NCBI GenBank assembly: GCA_000934665.2
Contig: KZ538039.1
Location: 62,001 to 126,000 of the forward strand
Source of the DNA: Catajapyx aquilonaris
Taxonomy: Eukaryota
DNA length: 64,000 nt
Reading direction: 5' to 3'
Under the pieces are notes generated by a model that ran no database searches, was not told the DNA's origin, and saw nothing but the letters and a program-made list of their open reading frames with translations. Positions 5,401 to 31,224 of this stretch are shown one piece after another. A program made the translations under genes and the position numbers. Each line of letters opens with the position of its first letter. Position 1 is the first letter of the stretch.

Positions 5401-8400
5401 TTAATAAGATCCACCTATAAAGTGTCGTCTGGGATTAGTTGTGTCATAAGCTCGGATGAGTTCGTTTTGTGTCACTTGTCCACCCTCTTGCTGGGAGAAG
5501 GAGAAGCCACCTAATGGGCAAGTATATAGAAAGAATAATTAGCAGAAAGTTCTCCCAACCAAAAAAAATGTGAACAAGTGTAGTGGCAACATGTGATTAC
5601 ACAATTTTTTTTTAATGTAGGTATAACCCCGCATTCAAATTCATGTCAAGTGTCATGCTTCTTGAGTACTGTGTATTCGACTAGGCTATATGCTGTCTGC
5701 ATGTGGATGAGTGTGACAATCATAATTTTTCTGTACAGTATACTTACGCATTGGTGTCTGATCCCAAGAATCCCTCCGACTGTAGCGAGAAACCCTGAGA
5801 GAGAGAGAAAACACATGAGAATTCAGGTTAGGTCAGCCTTCAAAATTTCATGAACTGAAAACCATCACGAAAAGTGGCATATATGTAAAACATTTATGTT
5901 ACATTTCTGAAAGTCATTACGTGCCCCTAAAACTAGTGTCATTTCTACAAAATTCCTTACCTATTAGGTACTGTTCGTGCGGGGATAAATTGAACAAGTT
6001 CTATATTTTCTATCTCATTTTCCCTCCAAGCCTCTTGCACGTCCTTAAACAGGATATTCTTCACTCTGAAAGAAAAGTGTATTCATCAATTTTATTGAAA
6101 TCTTGATTAAACTTTCATAACAATAATAACAACAACAACAACAACAATGATCCCAATTATTATAAAGCTCAATATTTGTACATAATTATGTACAGTATAA
6201 TGTCACGTTTTGAATTGCAATAGCAACCATTGTCGACAAACAAAGAGTTCCGTTGTTATAGAAAAGACTCGGGGTGAGAATGTGGAATGGGAGGTAGTCC
6301 GCCATCTACACTTGGGACATAATGTCGCACATAATTGTTGTCCCAGTTGCTAGACAACTGTCAGAGTATTTAGACGCACAGTCAGTATAGTTGTCATGTA
6401 CAAGCCCAAACCAGTAGTTTGGTTCCAGCTCAGCACTAAATAAAACTGTTACGACCATGCCAAACCACCGTTGCGCCTTTGTGTGCAAGTTCAGGGCAGA
6501 AAAAGGCCCGTCAGCAGAACTCTTTGATCTCACCTTTCACATTTCCATGGAGATGCTACTGAATAGGAAAAAAAAAAAGAAAAGAAGAAGACAGTGTCAA
6601 CAATCAATCTTGGCCCAAGTAAAGACGGTGGATTCCTCAGCCGAGGAAAGGGGAAATGATAGGGAGTCAGTCGTTGCTCTAGATAACTTATAATACATAT
6701 TAAAGCAGAAATCTGTGACGACAACCAAAAATGAGGATTTACCTCCCCTGCCCACAGACCCTCACACCCCTGACGGGCCAAGTGAAAACCCTGTATAAAG
6801 GCTTTTTGTCATGTCGAGATATTCGTGTTTGAAATTTTTTGTTTCCATTATCGTATATGGAAGTGCATGACTTCAATTGGGCAAAACTTTGAAAGGGTTG
6901 CTCCTACAGTTACGGGCTTTGTACTGTACCAACAGACTGTGTGACTTGCAAAAAGGAGTGCAATATGGTGCATTTATCTCCATTTATGTGATTTTCAAAG
7001 ATACGGGGTTATCACTTGGCCAGTCAGATGTCCAAGGGGTGGATTCATCCTTTAATGTCGTAAGTCATATTTTCATCATAACCGGTTGTAAACCATAGTT
7101 AATTAATTATTGGTAACTATAGTTACGACCGGCTATGACGAAAATATGACTTACGACATTATTTTGCTGAATCCACCCCCAAATAAATATTTCAAACTTT
7201 TACATAACCAGTCCCGATTGGTTTGGCGAGAATTTTGTAGGGCCTATCACAGGCCGGGTCAGCCCATAAAATGTTCCTCGACTGGTGAGATTTATTATGC
7301 CGCCCCAGGTAACAGCAGTAATAAAATATGTCAAACTAATACAGTATGGTACTAATATTTGTTGCAACACAAGAAGTTTATTATTTTGTCAGTGGAGAGA
7401 GTGTAGTTAAGCACTACTCTTTAGTCAACCATATAATACTGTAATATAGTGAATTATTCATCTGTCTGAACCATTGGTATGGCTGCCAGATGGCAAAAAA
7501 TGTGCATCGGAGGTATGGATGCCCATCTTTGGAGTTGTCTTCTATTGGTCTTTGTTATGCTGTGCTTTATTATTGCTCTACAGATTTAGCTGTTCACTGT
7601 TATACACATTCTCCTAACTACTGAGAGACGTATGTTTGTTCTCAATTCTCAGCAATTATTTTGCTACTTTTTGATAATATTTTTCAAAAAATGATCAAAA
7701 TGTACCCTTTAAAATCACCATAAAATAGATGTTTGAGGTCCAACCACTTACTAGTATGTTGGATTGAATATAATTGCTAATTAATTTTATAAATTCATAA
7801 AAATACAAAATGGGAAGTAGTCTGGCTTATTAAACATCAAGTATGCTACATAATATTATGAAAGCATCTTTGCAGACAGCAAATAAACAATCGTTTCCAC
7901 TCACATTGTAATGATTATCGTGGTAATGCATTTACAGGAGGAGTCCTACCATGAAAAACCTTTTGCAGTCATTTCTTTAGGTTGCAATACTCACGTTTTA
8001 TAGGTAAGATCAATCAAGAGGGCTGTGACAGGAGTTAGAACCAGTCCTGCCCAAAAGACTGGCGTGCTATACATCATGTGGTCAATACCACATATCTCCG
8101 AAGGCTGGCCACTGTAAGAATTCACCTTTGAGAACAAGACACCAAAAGAGGATAAGCAGCATATTACCTTACGATTGAAAGGAAAATGAACCATACAAGT
8201 ACTGAGCCCCAGATGGACAGATGCGTTGGCCACGTCCATGATTTTGTTTCCAGTCCCGCCTTCAGGCCAACAGCAACCACAACATACTGACCAGAACAAC
8301 AGAACATATGACTGTATGAGTAAAACCTCGCCAAGAGTATTTGGTGTGCAGGGGTTTTTTCGCAACTTAATGTCGATCGCATTATGTGACCTTCCTTACA

Positions 8401-11400
8401 TGGCAACTTCCAGAGTAACATTCTGACAAGAACTCTGAGGATAATATTAAAGTATTTTTCATAGTCAAAGAACTCACTGTGTAGATTGCGGTTCCAAGGA
8501 GGAGGTAACTGCCACCCTTTCCATGTTCCCACACTGTATCACTTTCCAAGAAGGACATAGGCAGCCAGAAGAGAATGGCTGAATGTAAGACGGCATTGGC
8601 AACCCAAACCACCAGTTTCCTGTAGTTAAAAAGCTGCCCACGTTGGCAGTGTCGGTACAAGGAAGGGTGGTTGAGCTTGATCGCAGCGCTGCAAGGATGG
8701 TCAAACAGACCCATGGCCATAGGCGCTGCAGCAGTGAAGATCAGGTTGTACAAGCTCAAGGTCCACTTGTTGAAGATAATTTGAGCAGACCAGCCATTGT
8801 AAATGGCAAACCAAAATTGCATCAGCCCTATTGTGACATTCTTGTAGATGCTATAGAGAATTATTTTGCTGATGCGACTGTAATTCCATGCCCCATGGAT
8901 GAACAGAAGGCGAGAAAGGAAGCGGAACTGTATTGGTAGAAACAGTGTCACATTTTAAGAAGGACAAAAGCATTTTAAATGACATTCACGAGTCATACTT
9001 TCTACTTACTTGAGCAATAGAGTAGTCAGAAGAGCAAGCAGCCTGCCAGCCCTCCTCACCGGCAATCCCAACGCCAACATTGGCCTTCTGTATCATTGGT
9101 ACATCATTGGCCCCATCTCCTATAGCTAGAGTTATTGCCCCTGTATTTTCAGACACTAGCTCGACCAGGTCAGCCTTTTGCACGGGGGACAACCTGCAGC
9201 AAATCACTGCCCTGCAGCTTACACAGAGCTTCAGGAAATTCTGTCGCATAGGCTTCCTCAGGGCATATTTGAGGGTCTCGCCGTCTATTATAAGAGCAGC
9301 ATCGTTGTGCTTGCCCAGATTATCTCCGAAGAGATACATGTATTTCCTGATGACATCCTCGGTTGCGTTGTGATCCTTTTCATTGAAGAACAGAAGTGCC
9401 ATTTCTTGCTTCAACAATCTGCATGAATGTCCTATGTTAATGGCTGTTTCCTGCTTGTCCCCAGTCAACATCCATACATGGATGTCTGCTCTCAGCAGGT
9501 CTTGAATAGTTTCAGGGACTTTGTCCTGGAGTTTGTCTTCTATGGCTGTGGCCCCAAGAAGTACCAAATTTTTCTCTATGTGGTCTGCCACATCATCCGC
9601 TTTTGTTGTACGAGAATGGATGTATGTGGTTGACTCATAATAAAGAGATTCCCAGTCCTGAGCAAAGGCAAACAAAGAGGACATATTGATGTAGGTGCTT
9701 ACATCTCTCTAAAAGTCATTCACCATAACAACTTACCGTGTAATAATTGTCAGAAATCTCTGCCATGGCAAAACAAAGTGTTCGAAGCCCTTCAGCAGCA
9801 AAATCTTCAAGATCGTCGAGGACAGTGTCTTCATGCTGCTGTTCCTCTCGAAGCCTCTCATAGATCACTGTATCTGCTCCCTTGCAATACAGCTTAATTC
9901 TGCCCTCCGGTGTGCGAACCACTACTGACATTCGCTTTCGAGCACTGGTGAACTCCAACACGTTAAGGATCTCATAACTTTCCTGCTTGCCCAGAGCATT
10001 GATCACCACAGTCTCGGGAGTGCGAGTATGAAAGACGTACCCAAACTTTGCAGCGCCTTGGAGTATGGCCTTCTCATCTTGAAAGAAGAAACTTATTATT
10101 ATTAGAGTAACCAACTTTGCATTCATTTACATTTACCTTTACTACATTTATTCAGTACTGACCTGGAGAAGAAGCATGATAAATGATCTCTTCATCTCGC
10201 CTTTCCGGAATGACAGTGTGGCAGATGGCCATCGAAGTGAGAAATTCTTTTATCAGGGGAGCAGATGAATGATTTCTCCTTAAATTCTGTAATCCAGATA
10301 CAACACCTGTTATAATTATACAGATGAACATGGATAACTTATAGGTTGTGATCGTTATTCTCAACATCACCTGTATAATATCTGTCTGTTCTGGGTGGTG
10401 GTTAGTGGCGATGTACTTAATCCCACCCACTGTAGCCCTTTTGAATTCCATAATATTTCTTGTCAATGTTCCAGTCTTATCCGAAAATATGTACTTAACC
10501 TTGAAATAAATTAATAGTGTGCCAGTTCCAATGAGTTCTTAATGCATTGTCAAAGAGTTGCTCTTCAAAAAACCAATTATCATAAAACAATGATGTCATG
10601 AAACAATACTGACCTGCCCTAACTCTTCATTCAAATTTGAAGTCCTTGCCACAGCAGGTGTATCAGAATTCTGATCATAAAGGTCAATGTCCATGCCGAT
10701 AAATAGTGCCTGTAACAAGTGTCAAATATGCAATTTATTTGTTTAATTAATTACAAGCAATTTTCATAACTATCCAGTCTCTTTCACCTGAATGAATCTG
10801 ACACTTTCTAGTGTAACTTGAAGTGAGATTGGAACGAGATTGTGGTACAGAATGATGAACATCAGGAGAGAGTATGCCAAACTCGTTTCAGCTGTCCCCA
10901 GGTGATGCAAACATGTGAGTAGATATCTCAAAGTGACTTTTCAGCACTAGTGCGTAAGATACGTGGCTCATTCACTTACCATCCAGATGAATATACCAAA
11001 TCATTCCTCCGTGGTTCTTACTCCAGATGTTGCTGCATATGATGCTGATGAGGCACAATGAGAAGAGGAGGGCCACTAAGAGGATTAACTGCCTATTTAG
11101 AACCTTGTCCACGGTTGATCTCTTGAGATGAGGATCAGTTGAGTTCTGCATAAGTTTGGAGTCAAAACCAGTGTATACCACAACAGCCACCACCCATCTA
11201 GTGTTCCTAAGTTTGGCGCCTCTCAGGATAATCTGGTCTGTACTCAGTCGCACATGCCTGTAATGATGGTACAGTAAAGTAATGCACTTTAATGGCATTT
11301 AATAATTACATATGACTTACTTTTTACCAAACTCCTGAAGATCACCTCTGAATCCATAAAGGTTCATGTTTGGTGGTTCACACGTGAGGATGCCATGAAA

Positions 11401-12142
11401 TCGTGCAAAATCACGAGTTATCTGAAGCCGGGCAGTACTAGACGGAGCCTGCCGGATCTTAAGATTCGTCTCTCCATCCAGGTTCATGGTTTCTATGTAG
11501 CAGATTGACTGCGGTTCACTGCAATGGTCAAGTAACTTAGACCTGAGGACAACTGAATTGGACACACACAGTGGCAAATATTGGCCCACCTGGTGGATAA
11601 GACAATCATGTCAGCTGGTAAAAAGTGATCATTATAAACTTTGCAAATGTTGCCGACAATGACGTCCTTCCACTTGACTTGGATCCAATGCCCATGTCTC
11701 AGAACTTCCACTTCATTACAATTTATTGCTGTGTCAACTCTGTTTCTTTTCTGCAAATGTGTGTGGAATGAGCATATACCGGTACTATCATTATTCCATT
11801 TATTAGGAAACAATCTTTACAATGTCTTCAGCTATTTCCTTGATGGCAGATGCAAGGAGAATAATAGAAAGAGGAAGGACTGTTGTGTAGGTAGTTGAAC
11901 AAACATCTGGTATTTGCTGAAGACAAAATAATGAACTTGTAATATTATTATCAACGGTTAAAGATTTTGCATCTTACCTGCAGAAGGGCAATGACCAAAA
12001 AGTATAGATTGGAATACCTTCGAAATTGTTCAAATAAAAAACTAGGAATAAAAGTTATCAAGCTGTACTTTGTAGTCGATATTTCATTGGTGCAGAATGT
12101 CTCATTAAAACCATTGACGACAATGGTGCGGTCCCTCTCCAT
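5401..12142 (-). CDS. ATP8A-type P4-ATPase phospholipid flippase, diverged tandem paralogue 'copy A'
   Basis: 14 exons from ATG 12142 ([11 protein letters not shown]) to 7995 splice in frame, with [63 protein letters not shown]. One in-frame path for the tail is 6790-6743, 5794-5748, 5510-5401, ending [36 protein letters not shown]. Exon use between 7995 and 5794 is uncertain. Confidence 0.85.
6119..6148. repeat. (AAT/AAC)n microsatellite
   Basis: aacaataataacaacaacaacaacaacaat. Confidence 0.7.
7036..7179. mobile_element. Palindromic MITE with 3-bp flanking duplication (CAA), in an intron of copy A
   Basis: Arms GGGGTGGATTCA..AATGTCGTAAGTCATATTTTCATCATAACCGGTTGTAA / TTACGACCGGCTATGACGAAAATATGACTTACGACATT..TGAATCCACCCC; CAA at 7033-7035 and 7180-7182. 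Confidence 0.8.
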
Positions 12143-12958
12143 CAAAAATGTAATATTCAGTATTGTCGTCCTTTTTCTGAAAGAGAGAGAGGCATAATAT
12201 GAATGACACAAGCTTAAACAAGATGTTAGTCAGAACATTTACTTACCAGGTTGAGGCCTCTTAAAACCTGTTAAAAACCAGTTCAATAATAAATTGATGT
12301 AGTGTTATGTTAATATGACCATTCCTTGTTCATTTCCTAAGGAAAGCTTTAAAAGTAATTTGAATGTTACACTTGCATCCTTCAAGTTTTTGTTCAATAC
12401 TGTTGCCAGGGAAATGCCAATGGATGTTCAGGTGAAAGCCCAACCTAGCTACTAATCTGTCAGACTGTCAACAAGCTTCTAGCAACAATTTAAAAAAGTA
12501 TTGCCAATATAAATACAGTTGTCATTTTTTTTACTATTCCTTTGTGGGTTCTTGCCCTTTTCAGGAAGGACAGCCAAACCAAAATCAATTGCACAGTTCA
12601 ATAGATTTACAATGCTCAAAAAAAAATTATACTGTATAAATTAAAGACAGGTACTGCATACTCTACTCTGTATATCAGTAACAGTGTCCTTTGTTAACAA
12701 GGTGACTTTTACAGATACATGTTATTTCCACCATGTCATAAAAATGTATGATAATGCACGCGGAACAGAAATTTAAAGTTCGGATTAAAGCGTGTTACAA
12801 CAAACCCCCGTGTCACCTACATAATTATGTGCAATATAACATAACAAAAACAATAGCCTACCGCAATTAATATATTTAAAATAAAGTACATAATATCTCT
12901 CATCCCACCCTTCCCATCCAAAAAAATCTCTCATAACAGCTGGAATCCTGTGAGCCTG

Positions 12959-15900
12959 TCATATGTCGTCATTATCTGAATACACTCCAATTGCAGCCCG
13001 ACTCCATATTCTTCCTGGAAATTCACTTGACCTTCTGGAAAAAAATAAAAGTAAATTATGAATTGTTGTTGTTGTTGTTGTTAGAGCCCAAAAGTTATTT
13101 CAACTTACTTCCTCTTTATTTCCTTCATAAAGATTTTGGCATCTGCTTCCTCAATTATCTCAGTTTCTCTAACAATCTCTGTAAAAGACCTGAAGATGGT
13201 ACTCCTGACACTGCAAGAGATATTTATGCATGTAAGTATGGGTGTGTTCTTCCAGATTTGTTGGGATATGAAGATGTTGGGATATGAATAATATGAATGT
13301 AGCTCACAGTACTATTACAACATCTGGCAACATAGTGGTCAGAGGCATGATAATCAGTCCTAACCAAAACAGAGGTGTAGTGAACACCATTGAATCCATC
13401 CCGCACATAACAGCACCAAATGGAAGGTAGGGCCATGCGTGACTGTAAAAAAAATTAATGCATTCAAATAAAACTACTGCTTTGGTCAAAGCACCGTCAC
13501 ACTGACCTGTACGCAGCCAAGGTGATAAGCCACATACCTAGTGACCCCCAGAGAGACAGGTGGGTCCACTTGTTCCATGTTTGAGTCTCAAGTCCTACTT
13601 TCATGCTCACTGTCGCAACAACATACTGCAATAATAATATCAGCTGATAATAATATTGTTCTCTAGCGTCTAATACAGGCAGCAGTTTTTCTTCTCGCAT
13701 CATGTTAATTAGGTGTGTCTTTTCAAAAATGCAAGTGCTACATTAGGGATTGAAAGTATAGATTCAGCAGACGTTCCCATTTGTTTGTTAATGTTGGCAA
13801 CAATATTATTAATAGGATATGTTGAACCTGTGGCCTCAGATCTACAGGCAGTGGTGCAACCTGGCCTTAGTCACTATTACCAAGATCTTCAAATTCATGC
13901 CATTCATAATATTGCACAAGTTTATGCTCCTTATTGCACATACCGTGTAAACCATATTTCCAAGGACTAGATAACTACTGCTCTTGCCATTTTCCCAGGC
14001 AACATCTTGCTCCATTGACATCATGGGCAGCCAAAAAAGGAACACTGAGTGGACAATGGCAGTCACAATCCATCCCCAGAACACTCTCGTGTTGAATAGT
14101 TCACCATTCTGAGAGGGTTTGTACAGGGCAGGGCATCTAACCATGGTCTCTGCTGAACATGTGCGATCAAAGAAGCCCATAGCAAGCGGCTGAGCATTGG
14201 TGAAGATCATATTGTAGGTGGCTATTGTCCATCTGTCAAACAATATTTGACCTGACCACCCGCCGTAGATAGCATACCACATCTCCATCATGTAAAGAGC
14301 TATGTTCTTGTAGAAGTAGTACATGATCACTTTGCTTATCCTGCCATAGTTCCACACACCATGGACCAACAGGAGACGGGACAGGAAGCGAAACTGAGCA
14401 ATGGAGTAATCAGAAGAGCAGGCTGCCTGAAGTCCCTCGAGACCAGATATGCCAACCCCAACGTTTGCTTTTTGTATCATGGCCACATCATTGGCACCAT
14501 CTCCGATGGCCAATGTGATTCCATGCGTCTGTTGCGTAACCAGTTCTACAACCTCAGCCTTCTGCATTGGTGATACCCGACAGCAGACAACTGCCTCGCA
14601 AACCGAGCACAATTGGAAGAAGTCCTGCCTTACACATTTACTCAAGGCATGCTTCAGTGTGTTGCCATCGATGATAACAGCTGCATGATTGGTCTTATTT
14701 GAAATGTCACCTAGTTCCTCAATGTGTCTGTTGATTTCCTCATGTGTGGACTCTGCTGTATTCTTGTTGAGGATCAGCAATGACATTTTCTGAGTTAGCA
14801 GGCGACAGGAGTATCCGATGTTGATGGCAGTTTCCTGCTTGTCACCTGTCAGCACCCACACTGATATGCCAGCTTTCATCAGGGATGCAATGGTCTCAGG
14901 GACTTCATCCTGGAGCTTATCCTCAACAGCTGTTGCGCCCAGCAGCTGAAGGTTCGTTTCAATCAACTCTGCGGCCTCTTCCAACTTTTTCTCGCGCTGT
15001 TCCAAAGATGTGCTTGCCGCATGATATTTTACCTTCCACTCCTGGTAAATTATAGAACACTTGTTATACAACACCAAACACTAAACTGATGGCTATTAAT
15101 GCGGTAGTTACACAATTGAAGTGTACACATAGTGTGAGTTTCGAAGCCAACACTCACATTGTAGAACTCTGGGGTGATGTCAGACACTGCTAAGCACAAT
15201 GTCCTGAGCCCTTCTGAGGAAAAATCTTCAAGGTGCTTTACGGTGATGTTCTCATATGGTTGGTTGCCACCAAGCCTCTCCAGTATCACAGAATCCGCCC
15301 CCTTGCAGTAAAGCTTGAGCTTCCCATCAGGAGTACGTACCACCACTGACATCCTCTTGCGGGTGCTGGTGAACTCGAGCATATTCAGTATTTCGTACTT
15401 CCTTTCTGTTCCAAGAGCATCTATGAAAACACACTCAGGAGTGCGCCTTGTGAAAACGTACCCACATCCTCTGGCACCTAGCACTAATGCCCTCTCATCT
15501 GTGGCCAGAAGAGAGCAAAGAAATGAGCTATTTTCTGCACATAAGATCATATCTAAGTTTACAACCAGGAGATGCTGCATGGTAGATAAGCTCATCATCT
15601 TCAACTTCTGGAATGACTGTGTGACATACGGCCAGCAAAGTCAGAAATTCATCTATAATTTTGCCAGTCGATTGATTGCTCCTCATATTCTGCAATAAAA
15701 AATTCCAATTAACTGGGGATATAGTGGATAAGTTGCATATCTCCAACCTGTATAAGTTCTGATGACTGCGGCTGAATAACAGCTGCAAGGAAGTACTTTA
15801 TGCCACACACTGAGGCGCCCTTGTACTCCATCTTATTTTGTGTCAGGGTTCCAGTCTTATCTGAAAACACGTACTTTACCTGAAAGGTAAAACAGAGACA

Positions 15901-17825
15901 CATGGTGCAGTGCATCACCATGTGTACTTATTGTATCAATTTATATGATAAACTGCACAAACCTGCCCCAATTCTTCATTTAAATTTGAAGTCCTGGCCT
16001 TAGCAGGAGTGTCTGATTCACAGCAGTACATCTGCATATCGGAGTTGATAAGCTTTGCCTATAATAATAACAACGGTGTCATCATAAATGCCACTGCCTA
16101 AGGTTTCTCTATGCACGAAAGAAAATCTCACCTGAACAAATCTGATAACTTCAAGAGCGACTTGGAGAGAGATGGGAATGAGGTTGTGGTATAAGATCAG
16201 GAATGTCAGGAAGTTGAATCCAAAATTGAAATTAGCCATAGCTATACCAAAAAAAGAAGGAAACAGTTAAAGTGCATCACACGTTTGTTTCATTTTGTTT
16301 GCAGCCTGGATAAATTCATAGCAAAACAACTTTGATTTCCCTCCTTCATCACAGTATACATGCACTTATGAAAGTATCTTACATTCCAGCCCTAAGTACC
16401 AGGAACCTGCCTGGTTAGCTTTGGTCCACACCTCAGTGAAAATTGTACTTGTCATACTCATGATGAAAAGGACTACTAGGAGGAGGATGACTTGGTTGTT
16501 GGCATGCTTGTCTAGTGTTGACCTTTTCAGTGGTGCACGAGTCGAATTCTTCATGAGTTTGGTCTCACTCCCCGTGTATATGACAAGGCCAAAGATCCAA
16601 CTTGTGTTTCTCAATTTTGAGCCACGCAACAAAATCTGATCTGGCCCAAGCGCCAGTGTTCTGCAAATCAAACGGCATATTACAACTTTCCTCATTTGCT
16701 TACATTGGACGGCAACAGGTGAACATTTATTTGCACTACTGACAATGGAAGGTGAGGAAAGTCAGATTTTTCCAAACATTTTAAATTGCATCAACAGCCT
16801 TCTTAAACATTGGAAGCTACTAACTCGTATTTGTAGTATTATACATTGTTAATTGTGCCTTACTCATTTCTATCCTCTGTGAGGTTCCCAACAAATTCGT
16901 ATAGATGCCTGTTTGGTGGTTCACACACTAAGTATCCCTTGAATGTTGGCAAGTCTTCAACATGTTGCAGCCTGGCAGTCTTTGGCAGGGCCTGACGAAT
17001 CTTCAGGTTGGTCTCTCCGTCCAGGTTGGCAGTTTCTTTGTAGCAAATGGAATGAGGCTCACTTAAAAATAGATTTGTTAAAAAATCAGTTATTGCAAAA
17101 AATCAGGTAATAATTATAAGCCAAACCACACCAAATTCAGTATGGAAATAACTTACCTGGAAGAAAGCAAGACAAGATCTGCAGGGAAGAAACTATCCCG
17201 GCTTACTCTGACAATGTCTCCGACTGCCACATCAATCCACTTGACCCATTTCCAGGAACCTTCGCTATGAACTTCCACTTTTTTGTTGTTGACCTTTTGA
17301 TCTGCCTTGTGCCGTGACTGAAAGGTATAATAAAGTAACAGTACAATTTTAATTGTTTACGAGAGGCAAGTATTATTGGAAACACTTACATAGTCTTCTA
17401 AAATCTCTTTGATAGCAGACACAGTTAAAATGAATGTAAGTGGCACCACAGTGGCATAATGTCCAGTTGGAGACACATCTGGTATTTGCTGTGAGTAAGA
17501 CATCCTTGATGAATTAAAAAGTCCACAAGAACTCAAAAATATGCAGTAAAAACACTTATCTCACCTGGAAGGCGGCAATCATGAGGAAAAAGCAGTTGGA
17601 ATACTTGCGAAACTGCTCAAATAAAAAACTGGGCAAAAATGTCAGAAAAGTATACTTCGCAGTGGACATGTGATTGGTGCAAAACCTTTTCTGGTGTCCT
17701 TGGTTGATTAAAATGACGCGATGACCAGGATGTGATTTTTTTCGGTCTTTGGCACTCAACGATGAATCTAGCCGGCTTCGAGTTGAGTGAAAAGACTCGA
17801 CTACATCAAGGCCCTCATCTTCCAT
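12959..17825 (-). CDS. ATP8A-type P4-ATPase phospholipid flippase, tandem paralogue 'copy B' (15 coding exons)
   Basis: From ATG 17825 (MEDEGLDVV..) all exons splice in frame with [58 protein letters not shown]. The last two exons (13210-13109, 13034-12959) give a novel C-terminus ..[25 protein letters not shown]. Confidence 0.88.
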
Positions 17826-21745: not shown

Positions 21746-24700
21746 TCACATCCCACCCGGCTTGGGTTGCGTTGTGTCATACGCCCGGATAACTTCGGAC
21801 TGAGGAACGACTCCATATTCTTCCTGGGAGAAGGCGTAGCCATCTGTAATGCGTTTGCAAAAATGGGGAAGAAAAAGTCTCATTAGCCACGGTCAAACTC
21901 TATCTAAACATTTTTTAAAGAAAGGAGTAAACAACTTAGGGATTCATCATTTATGTCAAAGGCACTTAAATCGTTGGGACACCTTTAAAATGTTCTGCGA
22001 TGTACAATCATCCGTGACACTTTGTCTCATTGGGAAAATGGTCAAGGTACTGAGTATGGGTAGTTAAAAAATGTTAGTGAGACAGTGAAAAAAAGTGTCT
22101 GCATCTTTTGGTTAAGTGAAGGATCCCAAAGGCTTGCAAGTTGCCATTGTTATTCTTGGGTGCAGGGTAAGCTGTACCCTTGTTAAAAAGAATAGAGAGT
22201 TGATTCCATTAAAGCCAAACTATCTAAATCCTTTTGTGAGTGCCAGTTTGTTTTACACACTAAGGTACAATGACAGTAAGCAGTGTTTGTTGCCCTGAAC
22301 AAGTACCGTTAGTTGAACAAATACATCATGCATGTAAAGTAAATAAATCAATAAAAAACATTAACATAAAAAGTGCACACCCAGAAAATCACAGCAGAAA
22401 ACCTAGCAACAATTATTATTGGCAGTGAACTCTAGCAGGTGCATTGATCAAAGTTTGCCTAGTAGGTTTTTCACCACAATAATTTGTAATCCATTGTTTG
22501 AGGGGCACTGATTCGCTTTTCACTTAGCAACAATAACCCAGTGATTATTATCTACAGCTAAAGAAACAACTAAAAGAAACTAATCGGTAACGGAGAAGAG
22601 TCCACCAACAATATTTTGAAGGTCATTGTGTGTAAGATTCCATCAGATAGAGCAGTTGTTTCCAACCTGCGAGTCGCAAAGCCTTTTCCGAGGGGTCGTG
22701 CTGTGGCAGAGGTAGTATGTTTTTACTTGCGATAAATTTTAAAGGAAACCACAAATACACACAAACTGACAGTCAAAACCAGTCAGAATTAGTGTGAGCA
22801 GTACTGTGAATCTCGGTAATTTATGACCCAATATGAAACAATGACTCTTGTCGTTATTGTTAATGGACAACCTTCTGAACACTCCCTCAATGCTATAGAC
22901 TTTCATCCTGTACTTCCTGCCACTTAATTCTTTCAGTTATTAACCGAAAACAACAGCCACCATTCCATCCAAATTAGCATTCATGGGGGGGAGGGGCCGG
23001 AGGGGTGAGGGTTTGGGGTATTGTAACAACATTTACAGACAAAATTAAAACAGTGGGGAAGGAGGGTTGCACACTCTTTCTCCAGTTACAGAGGGAACGA
23101 TGGGGGCCATGTACTTACGGGCCAGCTCAACCTCCATAGTTACTCGCGTGCTGGTACGTTTGAAGACATTCTTCACGTTCTTCAGCAGGCGAGCTGTTTC
23201 AGAAAGTCTGAAAGTGGCACTGGTGGTCAATCTTTTGGTCTCCATAAGGAGGGAGGATGGGATATTTGGCGAAGAATTTTTATACTGGGAAGTTGGGCAG
23301 TCATAGTTGGGTGGAGGTGGCCATCTCTTAAATATAATGTACATAACCATATACCCAGGGGGGTCAGGGGACCACTGGAACGCTTCCCTTGCCGCCTTAA
23401 AAGAAATCAGCCTGTCTTGACCTTACCTAGCCTTATTACTATGATACGGTTTTTTATCTCACAATCACCATTACCACTGTCGTGCAAGGCATTGCACACT
23501 GCAGGACTACCACAAATAAATATCACACTTATCATGTGCTTAATTGTGAGATAAAAAAAAGGTAGGCCCTTCCAGTGGAGTGGATGCAAAAGGGTCATAT
23601 AAATAAGGCACGGGTGCAAAGTGCAGCAGTAAAGAAAAGCTATCACACTAGTACAGTAGTTCATAAAGCAGGTGATGGGGTTCGCACCCCTGGCAGTTGC
23701 AGGAAATCTGTACTTACACATCGTAAGCTGTTCCAAAGCATGCATGGGGCTGAGGAGGAAGAGACCGGGAAAAAAAATTTGAGGGGAAGAAAAAATAGAC
23801 ATAGGGTCAGGTCTCGAGAGAACACATGGTCCAAATGTACTTTCCACACCCTGCTTGCAAAGACTGCAAAAAAATAATGGTTTGAAAAAAGAAATGAGGA
23901 ACAAGCAGCCAAAAACTACTCGTACAGTACATACTCAGCAAAGCCTACTGATTTTGTTGGTCACTTTAGAGGGGCTCTGAGCACTTGAAAATAACTTTCA
24001 ACAATATCCTGCAACATGTGCCATGATGAATTTGGACAAAAATAATACAGCAAAAGTGTCAAAAAAATGCAACACATTTACATCATCATCTCCTGTAACA
24101 AATAATAGTGATATTGCAGTGACGTGAGGTGAGCATGCATTGAGTACATCATGAAGAAAGGTGTAGATTTACAGATGCCTAAAAGTCGAACCTTTTCTTT
24201 ACATTTACTCATAATTTCTTTGGCAAATTCAATATTTAACATCTTTGTGGAATAATAAGACACTGTACTCTTAAACATTTCTGAAAAGCTCATGGGGCCA
24301 GATTCCATAGTGATGGTCACATTAACTGGTGAGTGATATCATGCAAACAAGACCAACTTTGTCAGTACCAGGAAAAAAGAAACTTGTGGAGCAGTCGGGA
24401 ATGGGATTGGGATTGGGAATATTATTTTTCACTCCCTACTTTTCGTGTCACTTTTGATTACACTATTCCAAAATGCAGGTCGCCTGCTCAAAAAATAACA
24501 TTCTACACAACAACCATGCTCTTCAGTCACATCATAAGCTGGTTGGGAAATTGTTTCGAAGGGAAATCATTTCAAACCTATCCATCTGTTCTTTCTATTA
24601 ACAGCAGCAATAACAGATTTTCAGAGGAGGCCACAGCATCTAAATACATGCACAGTGGGGAATTTTTGATATCTAATTAATTAGCATGGTTAGTTCCTGG

Positions 24701-27700
24701 ACTTAGCTGTTCCTTTCATCAAGCATAACTCCATTTTCATCCTTGCTATATCTCAAAAATGAAAAATTCATTATAAAATCTCATTTTAAATGTTCTCTGC
24801 GATGTTTGTGTCTGGTAAACAATTTGCAGCTCATTCAAAAATTGTAATCTGAGCTACACTAATTCTCAGGACAATGAGAATTGCACACAAAGTTGTAAGC
24901 AATGAATAATGACCTTACGTAATTGATTATTATCCACAGTCGCCATATGAGGCCACTGGACAGTAAGGATCCAAATCAAATTCCTGTTTCCCTAACATGT
25001 GGGGCCTTGGCTTACATTCTTCTTGCATAACAAATTAACAAATTAATTACCTTAAGTACAATTAAAGGCATCCAGCAAAGAAGTGTACCATATGAGACAG
25101 ATACAACATGTGTACATAAAAATATTTTCTTATCCACAAATAATCAAGTACAATGTCAGTTACTGTTTAAAATGTACGAAATTCAATGACAGGATATTAA
25201 GTCATGAACTTTGTAAGATGTAAGATCCCAGGTTAAACCATCAATAAAGCATTAATTTCAATAATAAATTTCAGACACAGCCTTTGTTGGATGCACTTCT
25301 GTTCAGTATCCATCTAAGAGTATCATGGATTAAAAACTCAATGACATGTGCATGACAGTCACATACCTCTGCTTGGTGTCCCTTGTCAGAACTTTGGCTG
25401 GGTCAGTGTTCCTTATCTCACTCTCTCTCACAGCTTCTGTGAGTGTCTTAAATATGGTACTCCTTGCACTGTTGGAATAATTGGCAACCATTAGTATGAC
25501 TCAACTATTCAACCAGGGAAAGAGGGCAATACGTACACTACAACCACGACGTCCAGCATCAGGGTCGTAAATGGTATAAGAACCAGTCCTAACCAGAAGA
25601 CTGGTGAACTAAACACCATCCGGTCCATTCCAAGCATCACAGCACCAATTGGAAGAAATGGCCATACATTGCTGTGGAAGAAATATTATTATTTACAACT
25701 ACTGCAATACAAACAGAAGGCAGCTTGTGAATGTAACTCACCTATAAATGAGGAGAAATATGAACCACGCTACTATGGACCCCCAGATCGCCAGGTGGGT
25801 CATCCAGGTCCATGCATTTGTTTCCAGGCCAGCCTTCAGGCTCACCGTCGCCACCACATACTACAGCAAATTAGAGCAAAGTTACAATTTTGATGCATGT
25901 ATCTTTGAATCAGTTTCATGTTCAAGAATTCTTTTGCAAGGTGGAAGTGACTGCTTGACACTTATTACAACTCCCAATAAGATGGGTTGAGATTAACCAC
26001 ACTATGTGACAGTCAAGTGTCACATTTAAGGCTAAAGGATCACATTACGTGACACCCTGCCTTTTCTTGTGCTGTCGCACGAAGGAGCAAATCAGCTGGT
26101 TTTACAGCACTTCTTCACATGATTCATATGACTTCCAAAAGTTATGAAAAGTCACTTGTTTTCAGATAATTAATATAAAGTTATAGTACCAGATATCAAC
26201 TCTTAAAATCATCACCCACAATTTTAGCATGTGCTCACCGTGTAAACCATATTCCCAAGGACGAGGTAACCCCCTTCTCTGGCATTGCTCCAGGCCACGT
26301 CATGCTCCATAGCGAGCATGGGCAGCCAGAAGAGCAGCACGGAATGGATGAGGGAGTTTATAATCCACACCCAGAACACTTTAACATTGAAGAGCTCAGC
26401 ATTCTGGGAGGGCTTGTACAGGGCAGGGTACTTGAGCATGGTCTCTGCACTGCAAGTCCGGTCAAACAGACCCATGGCTAGGGGCGGTGCAGCAGTGAAG
26501 AACACGTTGTAGAAACCAATGGTCCACCTCTCAAAGAGAATTTGGCCAGACCAGCCAGAATAGATGGCAAACCAGAGCTCCATCACATACAAAGTAATGT
26601 TTTTGTAGAAGCTGTACAGGATTAGCTTGCACATGCGGCTGTAGTTCCAGGCGCCATGAACAAACAGCAGGCGGGATAGATACCGAAACTGCAGGAGAAG
26701 AAGGTGTGTAAGAAGCTATGCCATTTCAATCCTTAGCTCAGAGTGACATGGTATTTAATATGGCAGAATAATAGCATTAGTAGAGCTAATGCCAACCACA
26801 TGATTAAATGACAACAGTACTGTATGGCCTTCTCAATTTACAAATAATGTTTCTGATCATAAACTGAACCACTGCATCCCAAATTTAATATCGCCACCTT
26901 TGGTCAGCATGAATAAACATATAAGCAGGCTACTGCTGTCACACCAGTCAATTACAGAAAATGTTTGTGCAATGCAGCAACTACATGTATACATGTTTCA
27001 ATGGACTTAAAATGGGATTTCAGAAGAAACAGTGCACCTGGAATTTCTCTATTCACATTTTGCAAGAATGATTAGAATCTTCGAGGCCTCTATGGGCAAA
27101 AATTCCCGGATAATATTCGGCGCTTCTAAATACTAGGTTCAGTCAATCTTGCCAGGATTTTGGATGCAATGCTTCACTTACAGTTTTGTAGTTACATGCA
27201 CACAACAGCAATTTTTAATGTTGTTACACACTCATGATATTATGACTCTTTATAACTATGAAAACAAAACCTACCTGGGCAATTGAGTAATCAGATGCGC
27301 ATGATGCCTGCAAGCCCTCGACCCCAGATATTCCAACCCCAACATGAGCTTTTTGTATCATGGCTACATCATTGGCCCCATCTCCAATAGCCAATGTAAT
27401 AGACTTGGTCTGGTGCGTCACCAACTCCACAACTTCTGCCTTTTGCATGGGTGACACCCGGCAGCAGATGACTGCTTTGCAACTAATACACAAATCCAAA
27501 AAGTCCCTCCTCATATCACAGCTCAGGGCATACTTAAGAGTTTTCCCATCAATGATGAGGGCAGCTTCATTCTCCTTGCCCAACTGGTCACCAAAGTCAT
27601 GTGTGTGTCTCCCAATGGTCTCTCTGGTGGAATCCAAACTGTCCTCATTGAGGACTAGGAGAGGCATTCCTTGACTCAGCAGACGACATGAGTAACCAAT

Positions 27701-30700
27701 GTTGATTGCGGTTTCCTGCTTGTCACCAGTCAGTACCCAAACATGTATGTCAGCCTTCATGAGAGCAGCGATTGTCTCAGGAACTTCATCCTGAAGTTTG
27801 TCTTCAATTGCTGTAGCTCCCAAGAGAACTAGATTGGTTTCTATCAGGTTGGCTGCATCCTCCAGCTTGCGTTCACGGAATTGGATGGCTGTGCTTGCCT
27901 TATAATACGTGTTCTTCCATTCCTACACGAGAAGAAAGCTCTCAATCACTGGTGAGCCAGAAGTAACACAGACCTTTCTAGGTAATTTCAAAGTTATTCA
28001 GATAAATAACTGCAAACTTTAAACATACAACAATCAGTTTACCTCATAAAAGTCTGGAGAGATGTCTGCCACCGCACAACAGAGAGTCCTAAGTCCCTCT
28101 GTAGCAAAGTCCTCCAAATGCCTGAGGGTAATATCCCTATGCTGCTGGCTATCCCCTAACCTCTCATAGATCACAGTGTCAGCTCCTTTGCAATACAGCT
28201 TTATCTTGCCCTGAGGGGTACGCACCACTACTGACATCCTCTTTCGGGTGCTGGTGAACTCAAGTACATTCAGTATCTCGTACTTCTCCTGTTTCCCCAG
28301 TGCATCTATCACCACGGACTCCGGGGTACGTGTCAAAAAGACATATCCATACCTTGCAGCACCATGTACAAGAGCCCTCTCATCTTGAATGACAGAAAGG
28401 GAAGAAAATATGTCAGTCAACCATAAAGACAAAATAACTGAAAATTCCTTTCCTCTAGACGCCTCCAGTCTAGAATCCAAAAAAGCATGTCTCACTCACC
28501 TGGAGAGGCAGCATGGTAAGTGATTTCCCCGTCTAAACCTCCCTCACCCGTCTCTGGGATAACAGTGTGGCAAACAGACATCAGGGTGAGAAACTCTCTG
28601 AGGAGTGGAGCAGTAGGATGGTTCCCTTTCAAGTTCTAAAATATAAAATTGGTATTTATAAACTGGTCTTACATATTTCCAAATCAGATTTGGTTCTTGT
28701 TACCTTTACAAGATCTAATGCATGTGGCTGGAGGTCTGTGAGTGTATATTTAATTCCTCCGACAGTGGAGCTTTTAAACTCCATTATGTTTCGAGTTAAT
28801 GTTCCTGTTTTGTCCGAAAACACATACTTAATCTGAAACAAGGAATTCTTATTGCAGTCTACAACATTTGCACTGTACTGTACCTCAATTATTATACAAT
28901 AGAGTGACTGACCTGCCCTAATTCCTCATTTAAATTTGATGTCCTAGCCATGGCAGGTGTATCTGACTCTTCATGATACATTTCTATATCCATGTTAATA
29001 AATATAGCCTGCCAAGAACACAAATTGTAATCAGTGGCTGCTTCAATATTTAATAACTCTGCACCTTACCTGCACAAACCTAACTACTTCAAGGGTAACT
29101 TGAAGTGAAATGGGAATGAGGTTGTTATAGAGGATGATGAATGTCAGGAGGTTGTAGCCAAAATTTGCACTGGCCAGTTCTGAAATTGGAAAAAAAAAAA
29201 TGGTGATCAATTCCTACAAGGTGATATTCATAATTGTAGCAAGACTTTAATGTCCTTGACTTTTTCCCTTAAAATGATTAAAGTATATTTAGTAAGTTAA
29301 AATTGCTTTTGGAATGGTCTGTGTGGGAGAAAAAGTACAACAGGTTGGAGTGATTGTAGAAAAACACTGTTTAAACTGCAGCTAGAATTGGTACCACACT
29401 TATCGATACCCAGTCATTATGAAACCTGGCCCATAATTTTCCAATTGGAGTTGGGTACTCCCTGGGTGTACATTTCATTGGTTACTAAATTTCTGGCTAG
29501 TTGAAGCAAGGCTCCTTAACATTTTCATAATTCATTGTGCAATATGCCATGAGACTTAAATTTGTTTGGGTGTGGCTGCTCCTCAAAATTTGAGAAATGG
29601 TGTCTACTTCTTTCACATCAAATTTTCGTTGTATGGTGAGTTGGTTTCTTTCGAGAATCTGAGTTTTAGCAAGAATATGCAGATTTATTATGTATTTCTT
29701 GGCATTCATTGTTATGAGCCTAAAGTCCAAAGCAGATTGCACTAAAAGGCTCATTGCTCATTCAGACTAAAAATATGCTCATTAAAATGCTGCGCCCACA
29801 ATGTTTTCTCCATAAGCATACATATGCATCTTCATCTGCATATGTATTCACATTAATGAATATTAAGCCAGGTATGCCAAGAATTTCAGAATGAACAACA
29901 AGCTAAACTGAAAAACCTGAATGGTTTCTTAGGGAAGGAAGCAATGGAACAAATGGAAAATACTGCAAGGCAGGGACAATCACAAAGTGGTCTTACCATC
30001 CAAGCCCAAGTACCAGTCAACTGAAATGTGTGACTTGGTCCAAAACTCATTGCACAAAGCGCTGATCAGACACAACACAATTAGAATGAAGAAAAGGAGG
30101 AGGATCTGAGTGTTGGTAAGCTTGTCCACAGTTGACCGCTTCAGTGGGGCAGAGGTAGAATTTTTCATCAGTTTGGTTTCATGGCCTGTGTAGATCACAA
30201 CACCAAAGATCCAGCTGGTGTTCCTCAATTTGGATCCACGCAACAAAATTTGGTCTGGACCCAGCGGAAGTGCACTAGAAAAGACACCAACAATATAAGG
30301 CTGCAGTCCAAGGAAATTTAAATTAAAGGGAAACTTACTGTTTTCCAGTCTCTCTGAGGTTTCCAGCAAACTCGTACAAGTGTCTGTTTGGTGGCTCACA
30401 CTCTATGGTGCCACTGAATTGACTCAAATCTTTGGTTTCCATCAGTTTGGCAGTTCTAGGTAAGCCTTGACGGATCTTCAAGTTGGTCTCCCCATCCAGA
30501 TTGGCTGTTTCCTTGTAACATATTGACTGTGGCTCACTGAAAACCATAAAAATGCAATAAGTCTCAGGGCTTGATGTGACATTCGAGTCTACATACCTTG
30601 ACGACAGGAAGACTAGGTCGGCTGGGAAGAAGTTGTCATTATGGACCTTGACTATATCACCCACCACCACCTTCATCCATTTCACCCACTGCCAGTGACC

Positions 30701-31224
30701 ATCTCTCAAAACTTCTATCTCCCTGTGATTTATCTCACCATCTGCTCTATGTCTTTTCTGGAAATGTATAAATCCATGAGTCCAACACGGCAATACACCA
30801 ATAAAAATTCCACGTATGACCCCCAAAAAATTCATTCTTACAATGTCTTCCACTGTCTCCTTGAGGGCTGACACAGAGAGAATAAATATAAGAGGCACCA
30901 GGGTAGTGTAGCGCCCAGTTGGAGAAACATCAGGTATTTGCTGGAAATCAAGTGCCATGTCAGAAAATTCATAGTTACAACACCATAAAGCCCTAGTTTT
31001 AGAGTTACTCACCTGCAGAAGGGCAATGAAGAGGAAGAAGCAATTGGAGTACCTACGAAACTGCTCGAATAAAAAACAGGGAATGAACGAGATGAGGTTG
31101 TACTTTGCAGTGGATATTCGGTTGGTGCAATACTTCTGCGGCTGGGGGTGATTGATGAAGATGACACGATGCTCCATGACATCCGGCATTTCTGTGACAC
31201 CGGATGTGTGGTCATCATCTTCTT
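21746..31224 (-). CDS. ATP8A: ATP8A1/ATP8A2-family P4-ATPase (PS flippase), conserved 'copy C'; shared 17-exon body, N-terminus supplied by upstream first exons
   Basis: Exons 31224-31013 ... 25468-25367, 23207-23119, 21843-21746 splice in frame. Canonical motifs: [64 protein letters not shown], and the ATP8A tail [32 protein letters not shown]. The first body exon opens with a phase-1 acceptor (ttgcag|AA GAA GAT). Confidence 0.93.

Follow-up and report, generated by a model that had tools for sequence, protein, structure and literature searches.

A tandem ATP8A-type flippase duplicate of Catajapyx aquilonaris that lacks the GYAFS tail and most likely hard-wires an exon-skipped splice form

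The existing evidence on what the C-terminal tail of ATP8A-class P4-ATPases does comes from engineered truncations, partly misfolded, and its role as brake, activator or folding aid is openly debated (PMC11225554); the same review notes that flippases without the tail motif exist and treats the tail role as unsettled. In ATP8A1 the motif phenylalanine was placed in the ATP pocket with the tail ordered only in E2P, and the tail was read by the authors as a positive modulator (10.1101/666321). Bovine ATP8A2 has been reported to lose activity with tail cuts of 20 and 33 residues, while cuts of 60 residues partly and 80 residues fully restored it; the protein minus 60 residues had Vmax values of 108 vs 137 and 60 vs 127 for wild type, with solubility halved (PMC5341728). 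Cleavage of the human ATP8A2 tail after folding raised Vmax and halved the Km for ATP, which was termed modest autoinhibition, and alanine at the motif Gly, Tyr or Phe brought expression to 10-28% with activity unchanged (PMC11750469). Here we describe copy B, the middle one of three tandem ATP8A-type flippase genes in a window of 64,000 nucleotides (nt) from the Catajapyx aquilonaris genome (assembly GCA_000934665.2, contig KZ538039.1, positions 62,001 to 126,000). All coordinates without a contig name refer to this window. We consider it probable that copy B is an intact duplicate in which an exon-skipped isoform has been fixed and which works without its tail control.

The three P4-ATPase genes lie in tandem on the minus strand in the order C (31224 to 21746), B (17825-12959) and A (12142-5401), and the models built from their coordinates had open frames and canonical introns throughout.

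12959..17825, minus strand, copy B, ATP8A-type P4-ATPase of 15 coding exons and 1109 codons including the new tail, with a putative start ATG
21746..31224, minus strand, copy C, conservative ATP8A orthologue with the full GYAFS tail, 1132 codons, 5' end untraced
5401..12142, minus strand, copy A, fast-evolving ATP8A duplicate of 1095 codons

The catalytic core of copy B was complete. Its introns were GT-AG in 14/14 cases with the frame open, and exon 11 aligned over 366/366 residues (E 8e-147) with human ATP8A1 (6k7g), the nearest solved structure, followed by yeast Drs2. The P-type catalytic motifs DGET, DKTGT, TGDKQET and GDGAND were all present, as were the QQ of membrane helix 1 (M1), PISL, the second Asn of M4, the M5 Lys and the M6 Asn. 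The ten-helix membrane domain with its M4 PISL kink was matched in alignments with C and, in the case of exon 11, with ATP8A1 as well. At 75/531 conserved columns B differed. Copies B and C were identical at 714/1058 residues, with a non-synonymous divergence (dN) of 0.224 and a synonymous divergence (dS) of 2.26 (dN/dS ~0.1), which indicates that the duplication is old and that B has been retained under purifying selection. Pseudogene status of the core was ruled out by the intact 1109-codon frame, the canonical introns and this ratio. Copy B also precisely lacks one internal intron that is present in A (9009-8928) and C (27274-26689); the corresponding exon of B is 13944-15041 on the minus strand, where 1098 = 648 + 450 nt.

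When the genome was searched with B exon 11, A, B and C were the sole close matches, and the remaining 6/11 matches listed fell on three other contigs with partial query coverage and far lower scores. A quick tree was drawn from 35 proteins, namely the three copies and 32 of the 120 hits. In it A, B and C clustered together among pancrustacean ATP8A with support of 85-89, below the starred level, and had end branches of 0.06 for C, 0.98 for B and 1.34 for A. The order of duplication was conflicting, as B joined C at 89 in this tree while derived residues in common instead favoured A with B (5 vs 2 vs 0 of 531 columns). On the favoured reading, B is a working, lineage-specific duplicate of the ATP8A flippase.

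The difference that sets B apart lies at the 3' end, where the features are as follows.

13109..13210, minus strand, B exon 14, 102 nt, ending in phase 2 and orthologous to C 25468-25367
13035..13108, minus strand, B last intron, 74 nt, GT-AG, with a consensus donor, a pyrimidine-rich acceptor and about six CAA units at 13082-13063
12959..13034, minus strand, B last exon in the shifted frame, junction Lys and 24 new residues, TGA at 12961-12959
12931..13032, minus strand, B last exon in the old frame, open for 33 codons to TGA at 12933-12931
12999..13018, minus strand, 20-nt block of B identical to C 21808..21827
23119..23207, minus strand, C exon of ETARLL type, 89 nt, phase 2->1, no B counterpart
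23718..23749, minus strand, C candidate alternative exon of HAL[GE] type, 32 nt, phase 2->1, no B counterpart
21746..21843, minus strand, C last exon with GYAFS and the short helix
5748..5794, minus strand, A phase 2->1 exon, 47 nt
5401..5510, minus strand, A tail with GFSFS

Exon 14 of B and its counterpart, exon 15 of C, also 102 nt with a phase-2 end, were identical at 62/102 nt without gaps. A preliminary description of this locus had contrasted the 89-nt phase 2->1 exon of C (23207-23119) with the lone 74-nt intron of B (13108-13035), and both coordinates and sequences agreed with ours. It had overlooked the phase 2->1 exon and GFSFS tail of A, the second cassette of C, the stop that follows intron retention in B and a tandem acceptor in B. 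The 32-nt candidate of C had an acceptor of 8.1 bits and a donor of 5.2 bits and would also bring back the GYAFS frame; it corresponds to an alternative exon that is widespread in insect ATP8A. Use of both C cassettes together would shift the frame to an early stop, so the cassettes at 23207-23119 and 23749-23718 are probably mutually exclusive; the 78 motif-bearing homologues divided into 57 with the ETARLL type, 13 with a HAL[GE]-like type and 8 with another. Since A retains a phase 2->1 exon together with a GFSFS tail, and C retains such an exon too, the loss is assigned to B.

On splicing from the phase-2 donor at 13109 to the acceptor at 13034, the last exon of B would be read in a new frame to the TGA at 12961-12959, so the frame switch claimed in the preliminary description was borne out at the DNA level. 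The acceptor holds the same position as that of C relative to their common block. Scored with weight matrices built on the 45 other introns of A, B and C, it reached 11.8 bits and exceeded 39/45 other acceptors, while the donor, at 6.8 bits, ranked in the lower third. The tandem acceptor 3 nt downstream (13031) would leave the new frame unchanged with one residue fewer. A donor, acceptor or microexon restoring the ancestral frame had been named earlier as what would overturn the frame switch, and the sequence offered none of strength: 0/7 GT/GC candidates between 13200 and 13046 were phase-1 donors, and pairs that restored the old frame needed weak cryptic sites (best donor 3.2 and acceptor 1.3 bits) and bypassed the GYAFS codons. 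A microexon inside the 74-nt intron was excluded by size, as the shortest intron of A, B or C is 56 nt and 74 nt is too small for two introns plus a microexon. The strong acceptor, the lack of a phase-1 donor and the lack of room for a microexon together imply that splicing would yield the shifted 24-residue tail. Retention of the intron would bring an in-frame TAA at once (13107-13105), leaving two predicted real routes for B, namely splicing into the new frame or retention with an immediate stop.

The C-terminal G[YF]AFS motif and short helix were absent from B in all three frames and by every splice route. In the old frame, which as first described is still legible, four of the five GYAFS residues were changed, and GYAFS is therefore lost in B under every splice route and under every rival explanation weighed below. 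Against a reference of 72 homologous tails, this frame kept 7/12 family-invariant residues and had lost the A, F and S of GYAFS, the helix Arg and a late Pro; the near-invariant residues that follow Tyr-Asp in these tails were absent in B and partly present in A. Homology of the B and C last exons was clear, with a local alignment score of 40 vs a maximum of 22 over 500 shuffles. An identical run of at least 20 bases occurred once elsewhere in 3174 aligned B/C coding bases, which makes the 20-nt block unusual; it could reflect a splicing enhancer, a dual-frame constraint or gene conversion. The splice sites of C would still permit its cassettes to be skipped, giving a 22-residue tail with seven consecutive residues and the stop codon in common with B.

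Among the 120 best homologues, G[YF]AFS was found in 78 and 42 were without it; four of the latter read the last exon in the frame of B directly after the donor exon. Six clusters were looked up, four picked for the skip form and two picked as GYAFS-bearing, which provided 33 further proteins. Skip-frame tails occurred in 9/33, and each of the six clusters contained one, including both GYAFS-picked clusters, while 2/33 members ended at the donor-exon boundary. The skip form was thereby annotated in eight species, namely four drosophilids, a sawfly, a cricket, a crayfish and a brine shrimp (single-copy ATP8A), and these isoforms are annotation entries only (XP_ accessions, one KRG). The shifted frame can thus no longer be held a novelty of B, as first presented. 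Since the same exon-skipped and shifted tail is annotated in eight pancrustaceans, B has most likely hard-wired a pre-existing ATP8A splice form. Arthropod ATP8A is annotated with many differing C-terminal isoforms behind one phase-2 donor, and a literature search covering titles and abstract openings, with few subscription papers, returned no study on tail isoforms of arthropod ATP8A or on duplicates that lack the tail.

The favoured mechanism begins with a genomic deletion after duplication that would have removed both alternative phase 2->1 exons from B and merged the flanking introns into the one of 74 nt. The message would then be spliced 13109->13034, or 3 nt further, a junction corresponding to the minor exon-skip junction of single-copy arthropod ATP8A, and the last exon would thereby be read in the shifted frame. 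Remnants of the lost exons or of the C introns were sought in the B intron and none stood above shuffles (19-197 of 200 shuffles matched the score). Reverse transcription of a skip message as the cause of exon loss is unlikely, since the intron would presumably have vanished too.

Which frame has been under selection was addressed with B-C identity along the last exon, which was 43/66 nt upstream of the new stop and 6/24 downstream (best of two registers; Fisher p 0.0009), while A-C identity showed no comparable drop (47/66, then 11/18). In simulations with uniform rates, in which indels were ignored and rates were assumed, the identity pattern arose in up to 33/2500 runs when selection moved early to the new frame, in 0/2500 under old-frame selection alone and in at most 1/2500 on release to an untranslated region (UTR). 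These results, and the loss of 5/12 family-invariant residues from the old frame, speak for the new frame. The figure for release to UTR bears on the possibility that the 74-nt intron is mostly retained, in which case B would end at the junction with three basic residues and TAA, a plain tail-less flippase with its last exon as 3' UTR. The frame does halt at the first full intron codon, boundary-ending isoforms are annotated elsewhere in the 2/33 cluster members above, and no later junction would presumably be left to trigger decay. However, both splice sites have been kept with the acceptor above 39/45 others, and together with the simulations this makes retention decidedly unlikely.

Several observations weigh against the reading that a fixed skip isoform is expressed in B through the new frame. 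The old frame is still open with its stop within one codon of that of C, and it matches C at 12/22 aligned residues vs 8/22 in the new frame. Last-exon identity by codon position was 18, 14 and 11 of 22, like that of coding exon 14 (25, 21 and 16 of 34); because exon 14 gives the same pattern, this test cannot discriminate between the frames. A model with the old frame used and its ends free fitted better (34-281/2500), with extra free parameters and without a splice route. Searches for B orthologues with the exon 11 protein, among proteins of 201-641 and 642-2000 residues, returned none, the best matches being 66% and 68% identical. The skip isoforms of other species are annotation-pipeline entries and may be splicing noise, and post-folding cleavage of the ATP8A2 tail raised Vmax (PMC11750469), so some activation of B is possible. 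A history in two steps, with the old frame first and a later switch, fits all the frame data, which are too few to decide.

Some of these points belong to the view that the old frame is still translated, either because a small exon was lost by assembly collapse at the CAA repeat or through a hidden route, for example by way of a phase 2->1 exon farther off, giving a full-length and degenerate tail without GYAFS. It draws on the 33 open codons with a stop near that of C, on helix Gln, Glu and Ile preserved via synonymous changes, on the relaxed-old-frame simulation as best fit and on a fragmented assembly of 20583 contigs. Nevertheless, the CAA repeat spans only ~20 nt, the junction has no N bases nearby and the intron is of ordinary size (most are 56-95 nt). 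A second genomic copy of the B flanks and an orphan copy of the 89-nt C exon were both sought and gave single self-matches only, although a diverged exon could escape. The near-invariant residues after Tyr-Asp are gone in B, and we judge continued translation of the old frame very unlikely. That some ribosomes slip by +1 at the Phe codon before the 20-nt block and so return to the old frame is scarcely credible: the UUU-C run directly precedes the block, a slip there would enter the old frame at the first conserved codon, and retention of the block and the downstream frame would be explained, but a four-base run is common by chance and this account has no other support. The codons flanking the Phe site are also not known to form a +1 slip site, which counts against it.

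Simple decay under relaxed selection, in which splicing occurs, the 24 residues are a tolerated appendage without a role and B is weaker and partly redundant, is an appreciable though minority possibility. It is consistent with the long B branch (0.98 vs 0.06 for C), the 75/531 changed columns and B-branch changes that favour neither frame (synonymous at 6/16 in the old and 7/16 in the new). Skip-frame tails elsewhere differ widely in length and sequence between species, as expected of a by-product frame. A dN/dS of ~0.1 over a saturated dS argues instead for long retention, and conservation stops at the new stop codon; the decay account overlaps the fixed skip isoform that we favour and differs only by denying the change any role.

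Independent of the tail, copies B and A share a substitution in the lipid site.

16132..16241, minus strand, B exon 6 (M3-M4), His for Asn at the Pro-4 lipid-selecting position, B residue 351
10788..10891, minus strand, A counterpart exon, same Pro-4 His

The Pro-4 site, four residues before the M4 proline, is Asn in C and in 117/117 matched homologues (3/120 unmatched), and His in both B and A is new here. Of the phosphatidylserine head-group residues (ATP8A1 Q88, Q89, N352 and N353), B has kept QQ and the second Asn, with the first Asn replaced by His. Asn352 of ATP8A1 has been reported to contact the serine head group (10.1101/666321), and glucosylceramide transport in Dnf2 and ATP10D to be decided by the Pro-4 position (10.1101/373712), suggesting that the lipid preference of B may be altered. 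The earlier suggestion of a rewired flippase thereby gains support of its own. The genome also carries two tandem CDC50 genes (G000:C3703:13000-21291), whose compared exon shows 66% identity across 176 residues, and the flippase partner subunit is thus also duplicated.

Copy B retains ~35 residues past the last membrane helix, and relative to C it has lost 61 (linker, GYAFS and short helix) and gained 24. The 60-residue ATP8A2 cut is its nearest model, as B is short of 61 residues. By analogy, B would most likely have no tail control with ordinary or lower turnover and would not be hyperactive, and it would have had to offset the folding cost of motif loss. The term autoinhibitory, applied earlier to the tail, suits Drs2 and ATP8B1, while in the ATP8A class the effect is reported as only modest and the ATP8A2 motif is also needed for folding. 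Likewise, the proposal of a deregulated flippase is sound in the sense of uncontrolled, but not of hyperactive, as the 60-residue ATP8A2 cut lowers Vmax (PMC5341728). With no tail to insert into the N-domain ATP pocket, the B protein would have lost tail control; given the Pro-4 Asn to His change as well, it has probably become a specialised flippase whose lipid preference or location differs. In a bolder form, the arthropod skip form would be an ancient functional isoform with B as its dedicated gene, the new peptide selected, from shortly after the duplication onwards, as a targeting or regulatory signal and, with the His, a tail-free flippase for a non-phosphatidylserine lipid; we offer this tentatively and think it rather unlikely. 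If true, B would show by natural example how an ATP8A can fold and cycle when GYAFS is missing, and what purpose the tail serves.

Other observations concern the neighbouring copy A. Six residues are deleted from its M9-M10 loop (7995-8111, minus strand), and its M1-M2 loop (11821-11916, minus strand) is altered and one residue shorter; both loops are on the outer face, where the pump meets CDC50 and lipid. The B stop and the A start are only ~800 nt apart (12143-12958), the stretch from 12956 to 12150 contains neither AATAAA nor ATTAAA, and copy A has candidate 5' UTR splice sites close to 12247 and 12177. This arrangement makes transcriptional read-through from B to A possible.

Flippase tail variation, splice-form fixation after duplication and frameshifted C-termini are each already known, and copy B can be set beside described cases of all three. 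Relative to the ATP8A1/ATP8A2/Drs2 class (human ATP8A1, 6k7g), B has the same whole catalytic core and differs by having no GYAFS or short helix and by His at the Asn352 position. Its tail loss is similar to the bovine ATP8A2 truncations (PMC5341728) and to human ATP8A2 cleaved with TEV (PMC11750469), with the 61 residues counted against C and unaligned to the bovine protein. Those truncations were engineered, whereas B is natural, old and selected, with 24 new residues besides. As B is naturally tail-less and stands beside an intact C and an A with a near-intact tail, the locus is a ready set for tail swaps.

A C-terminal swap is reported to alter regulation or targeting in the flippase tail splice variants ATP11C-a/-b (PMC11775268) and in the C. 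elegans tat-1 isoforms, four in number (PMC2572054). In both examples a single gene yields the variants through alternative splicing, whereas in B a duplicate gene would fix one form. Splice-form subfunctionalisation (PMC4417111) is alike in that one duplicate fixes a single exon structure, although the case of B is asymmetric since C in principle can still skip. The frameshift-born C-terminus of euAP3 (PMC3794426) resembles B, at the DNA level, in that a duplicate ends in a new frame; a small indel was responsible there as opposed to a cassette-exon deletion in B, where the new motif is seen in one genome only. The closest likeness is with the arthropod skip isoforms (XP_069948298.1, XP_030237938.1, XP_048511424.1, XP_068083347.1 and XP_065573940.1), which have the same donor, last exon and shifted frame as B. 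In those species the skip form is one annotated form among many, whereas in B the cassettes would have been deleted, which would leave the skip form as the sole spliced product, and the codons for GYAFS have decayed in the meantime. In copy B a frame-shifting skip isoform, of the sort readily put down to annotation noise, may have become its own gene.

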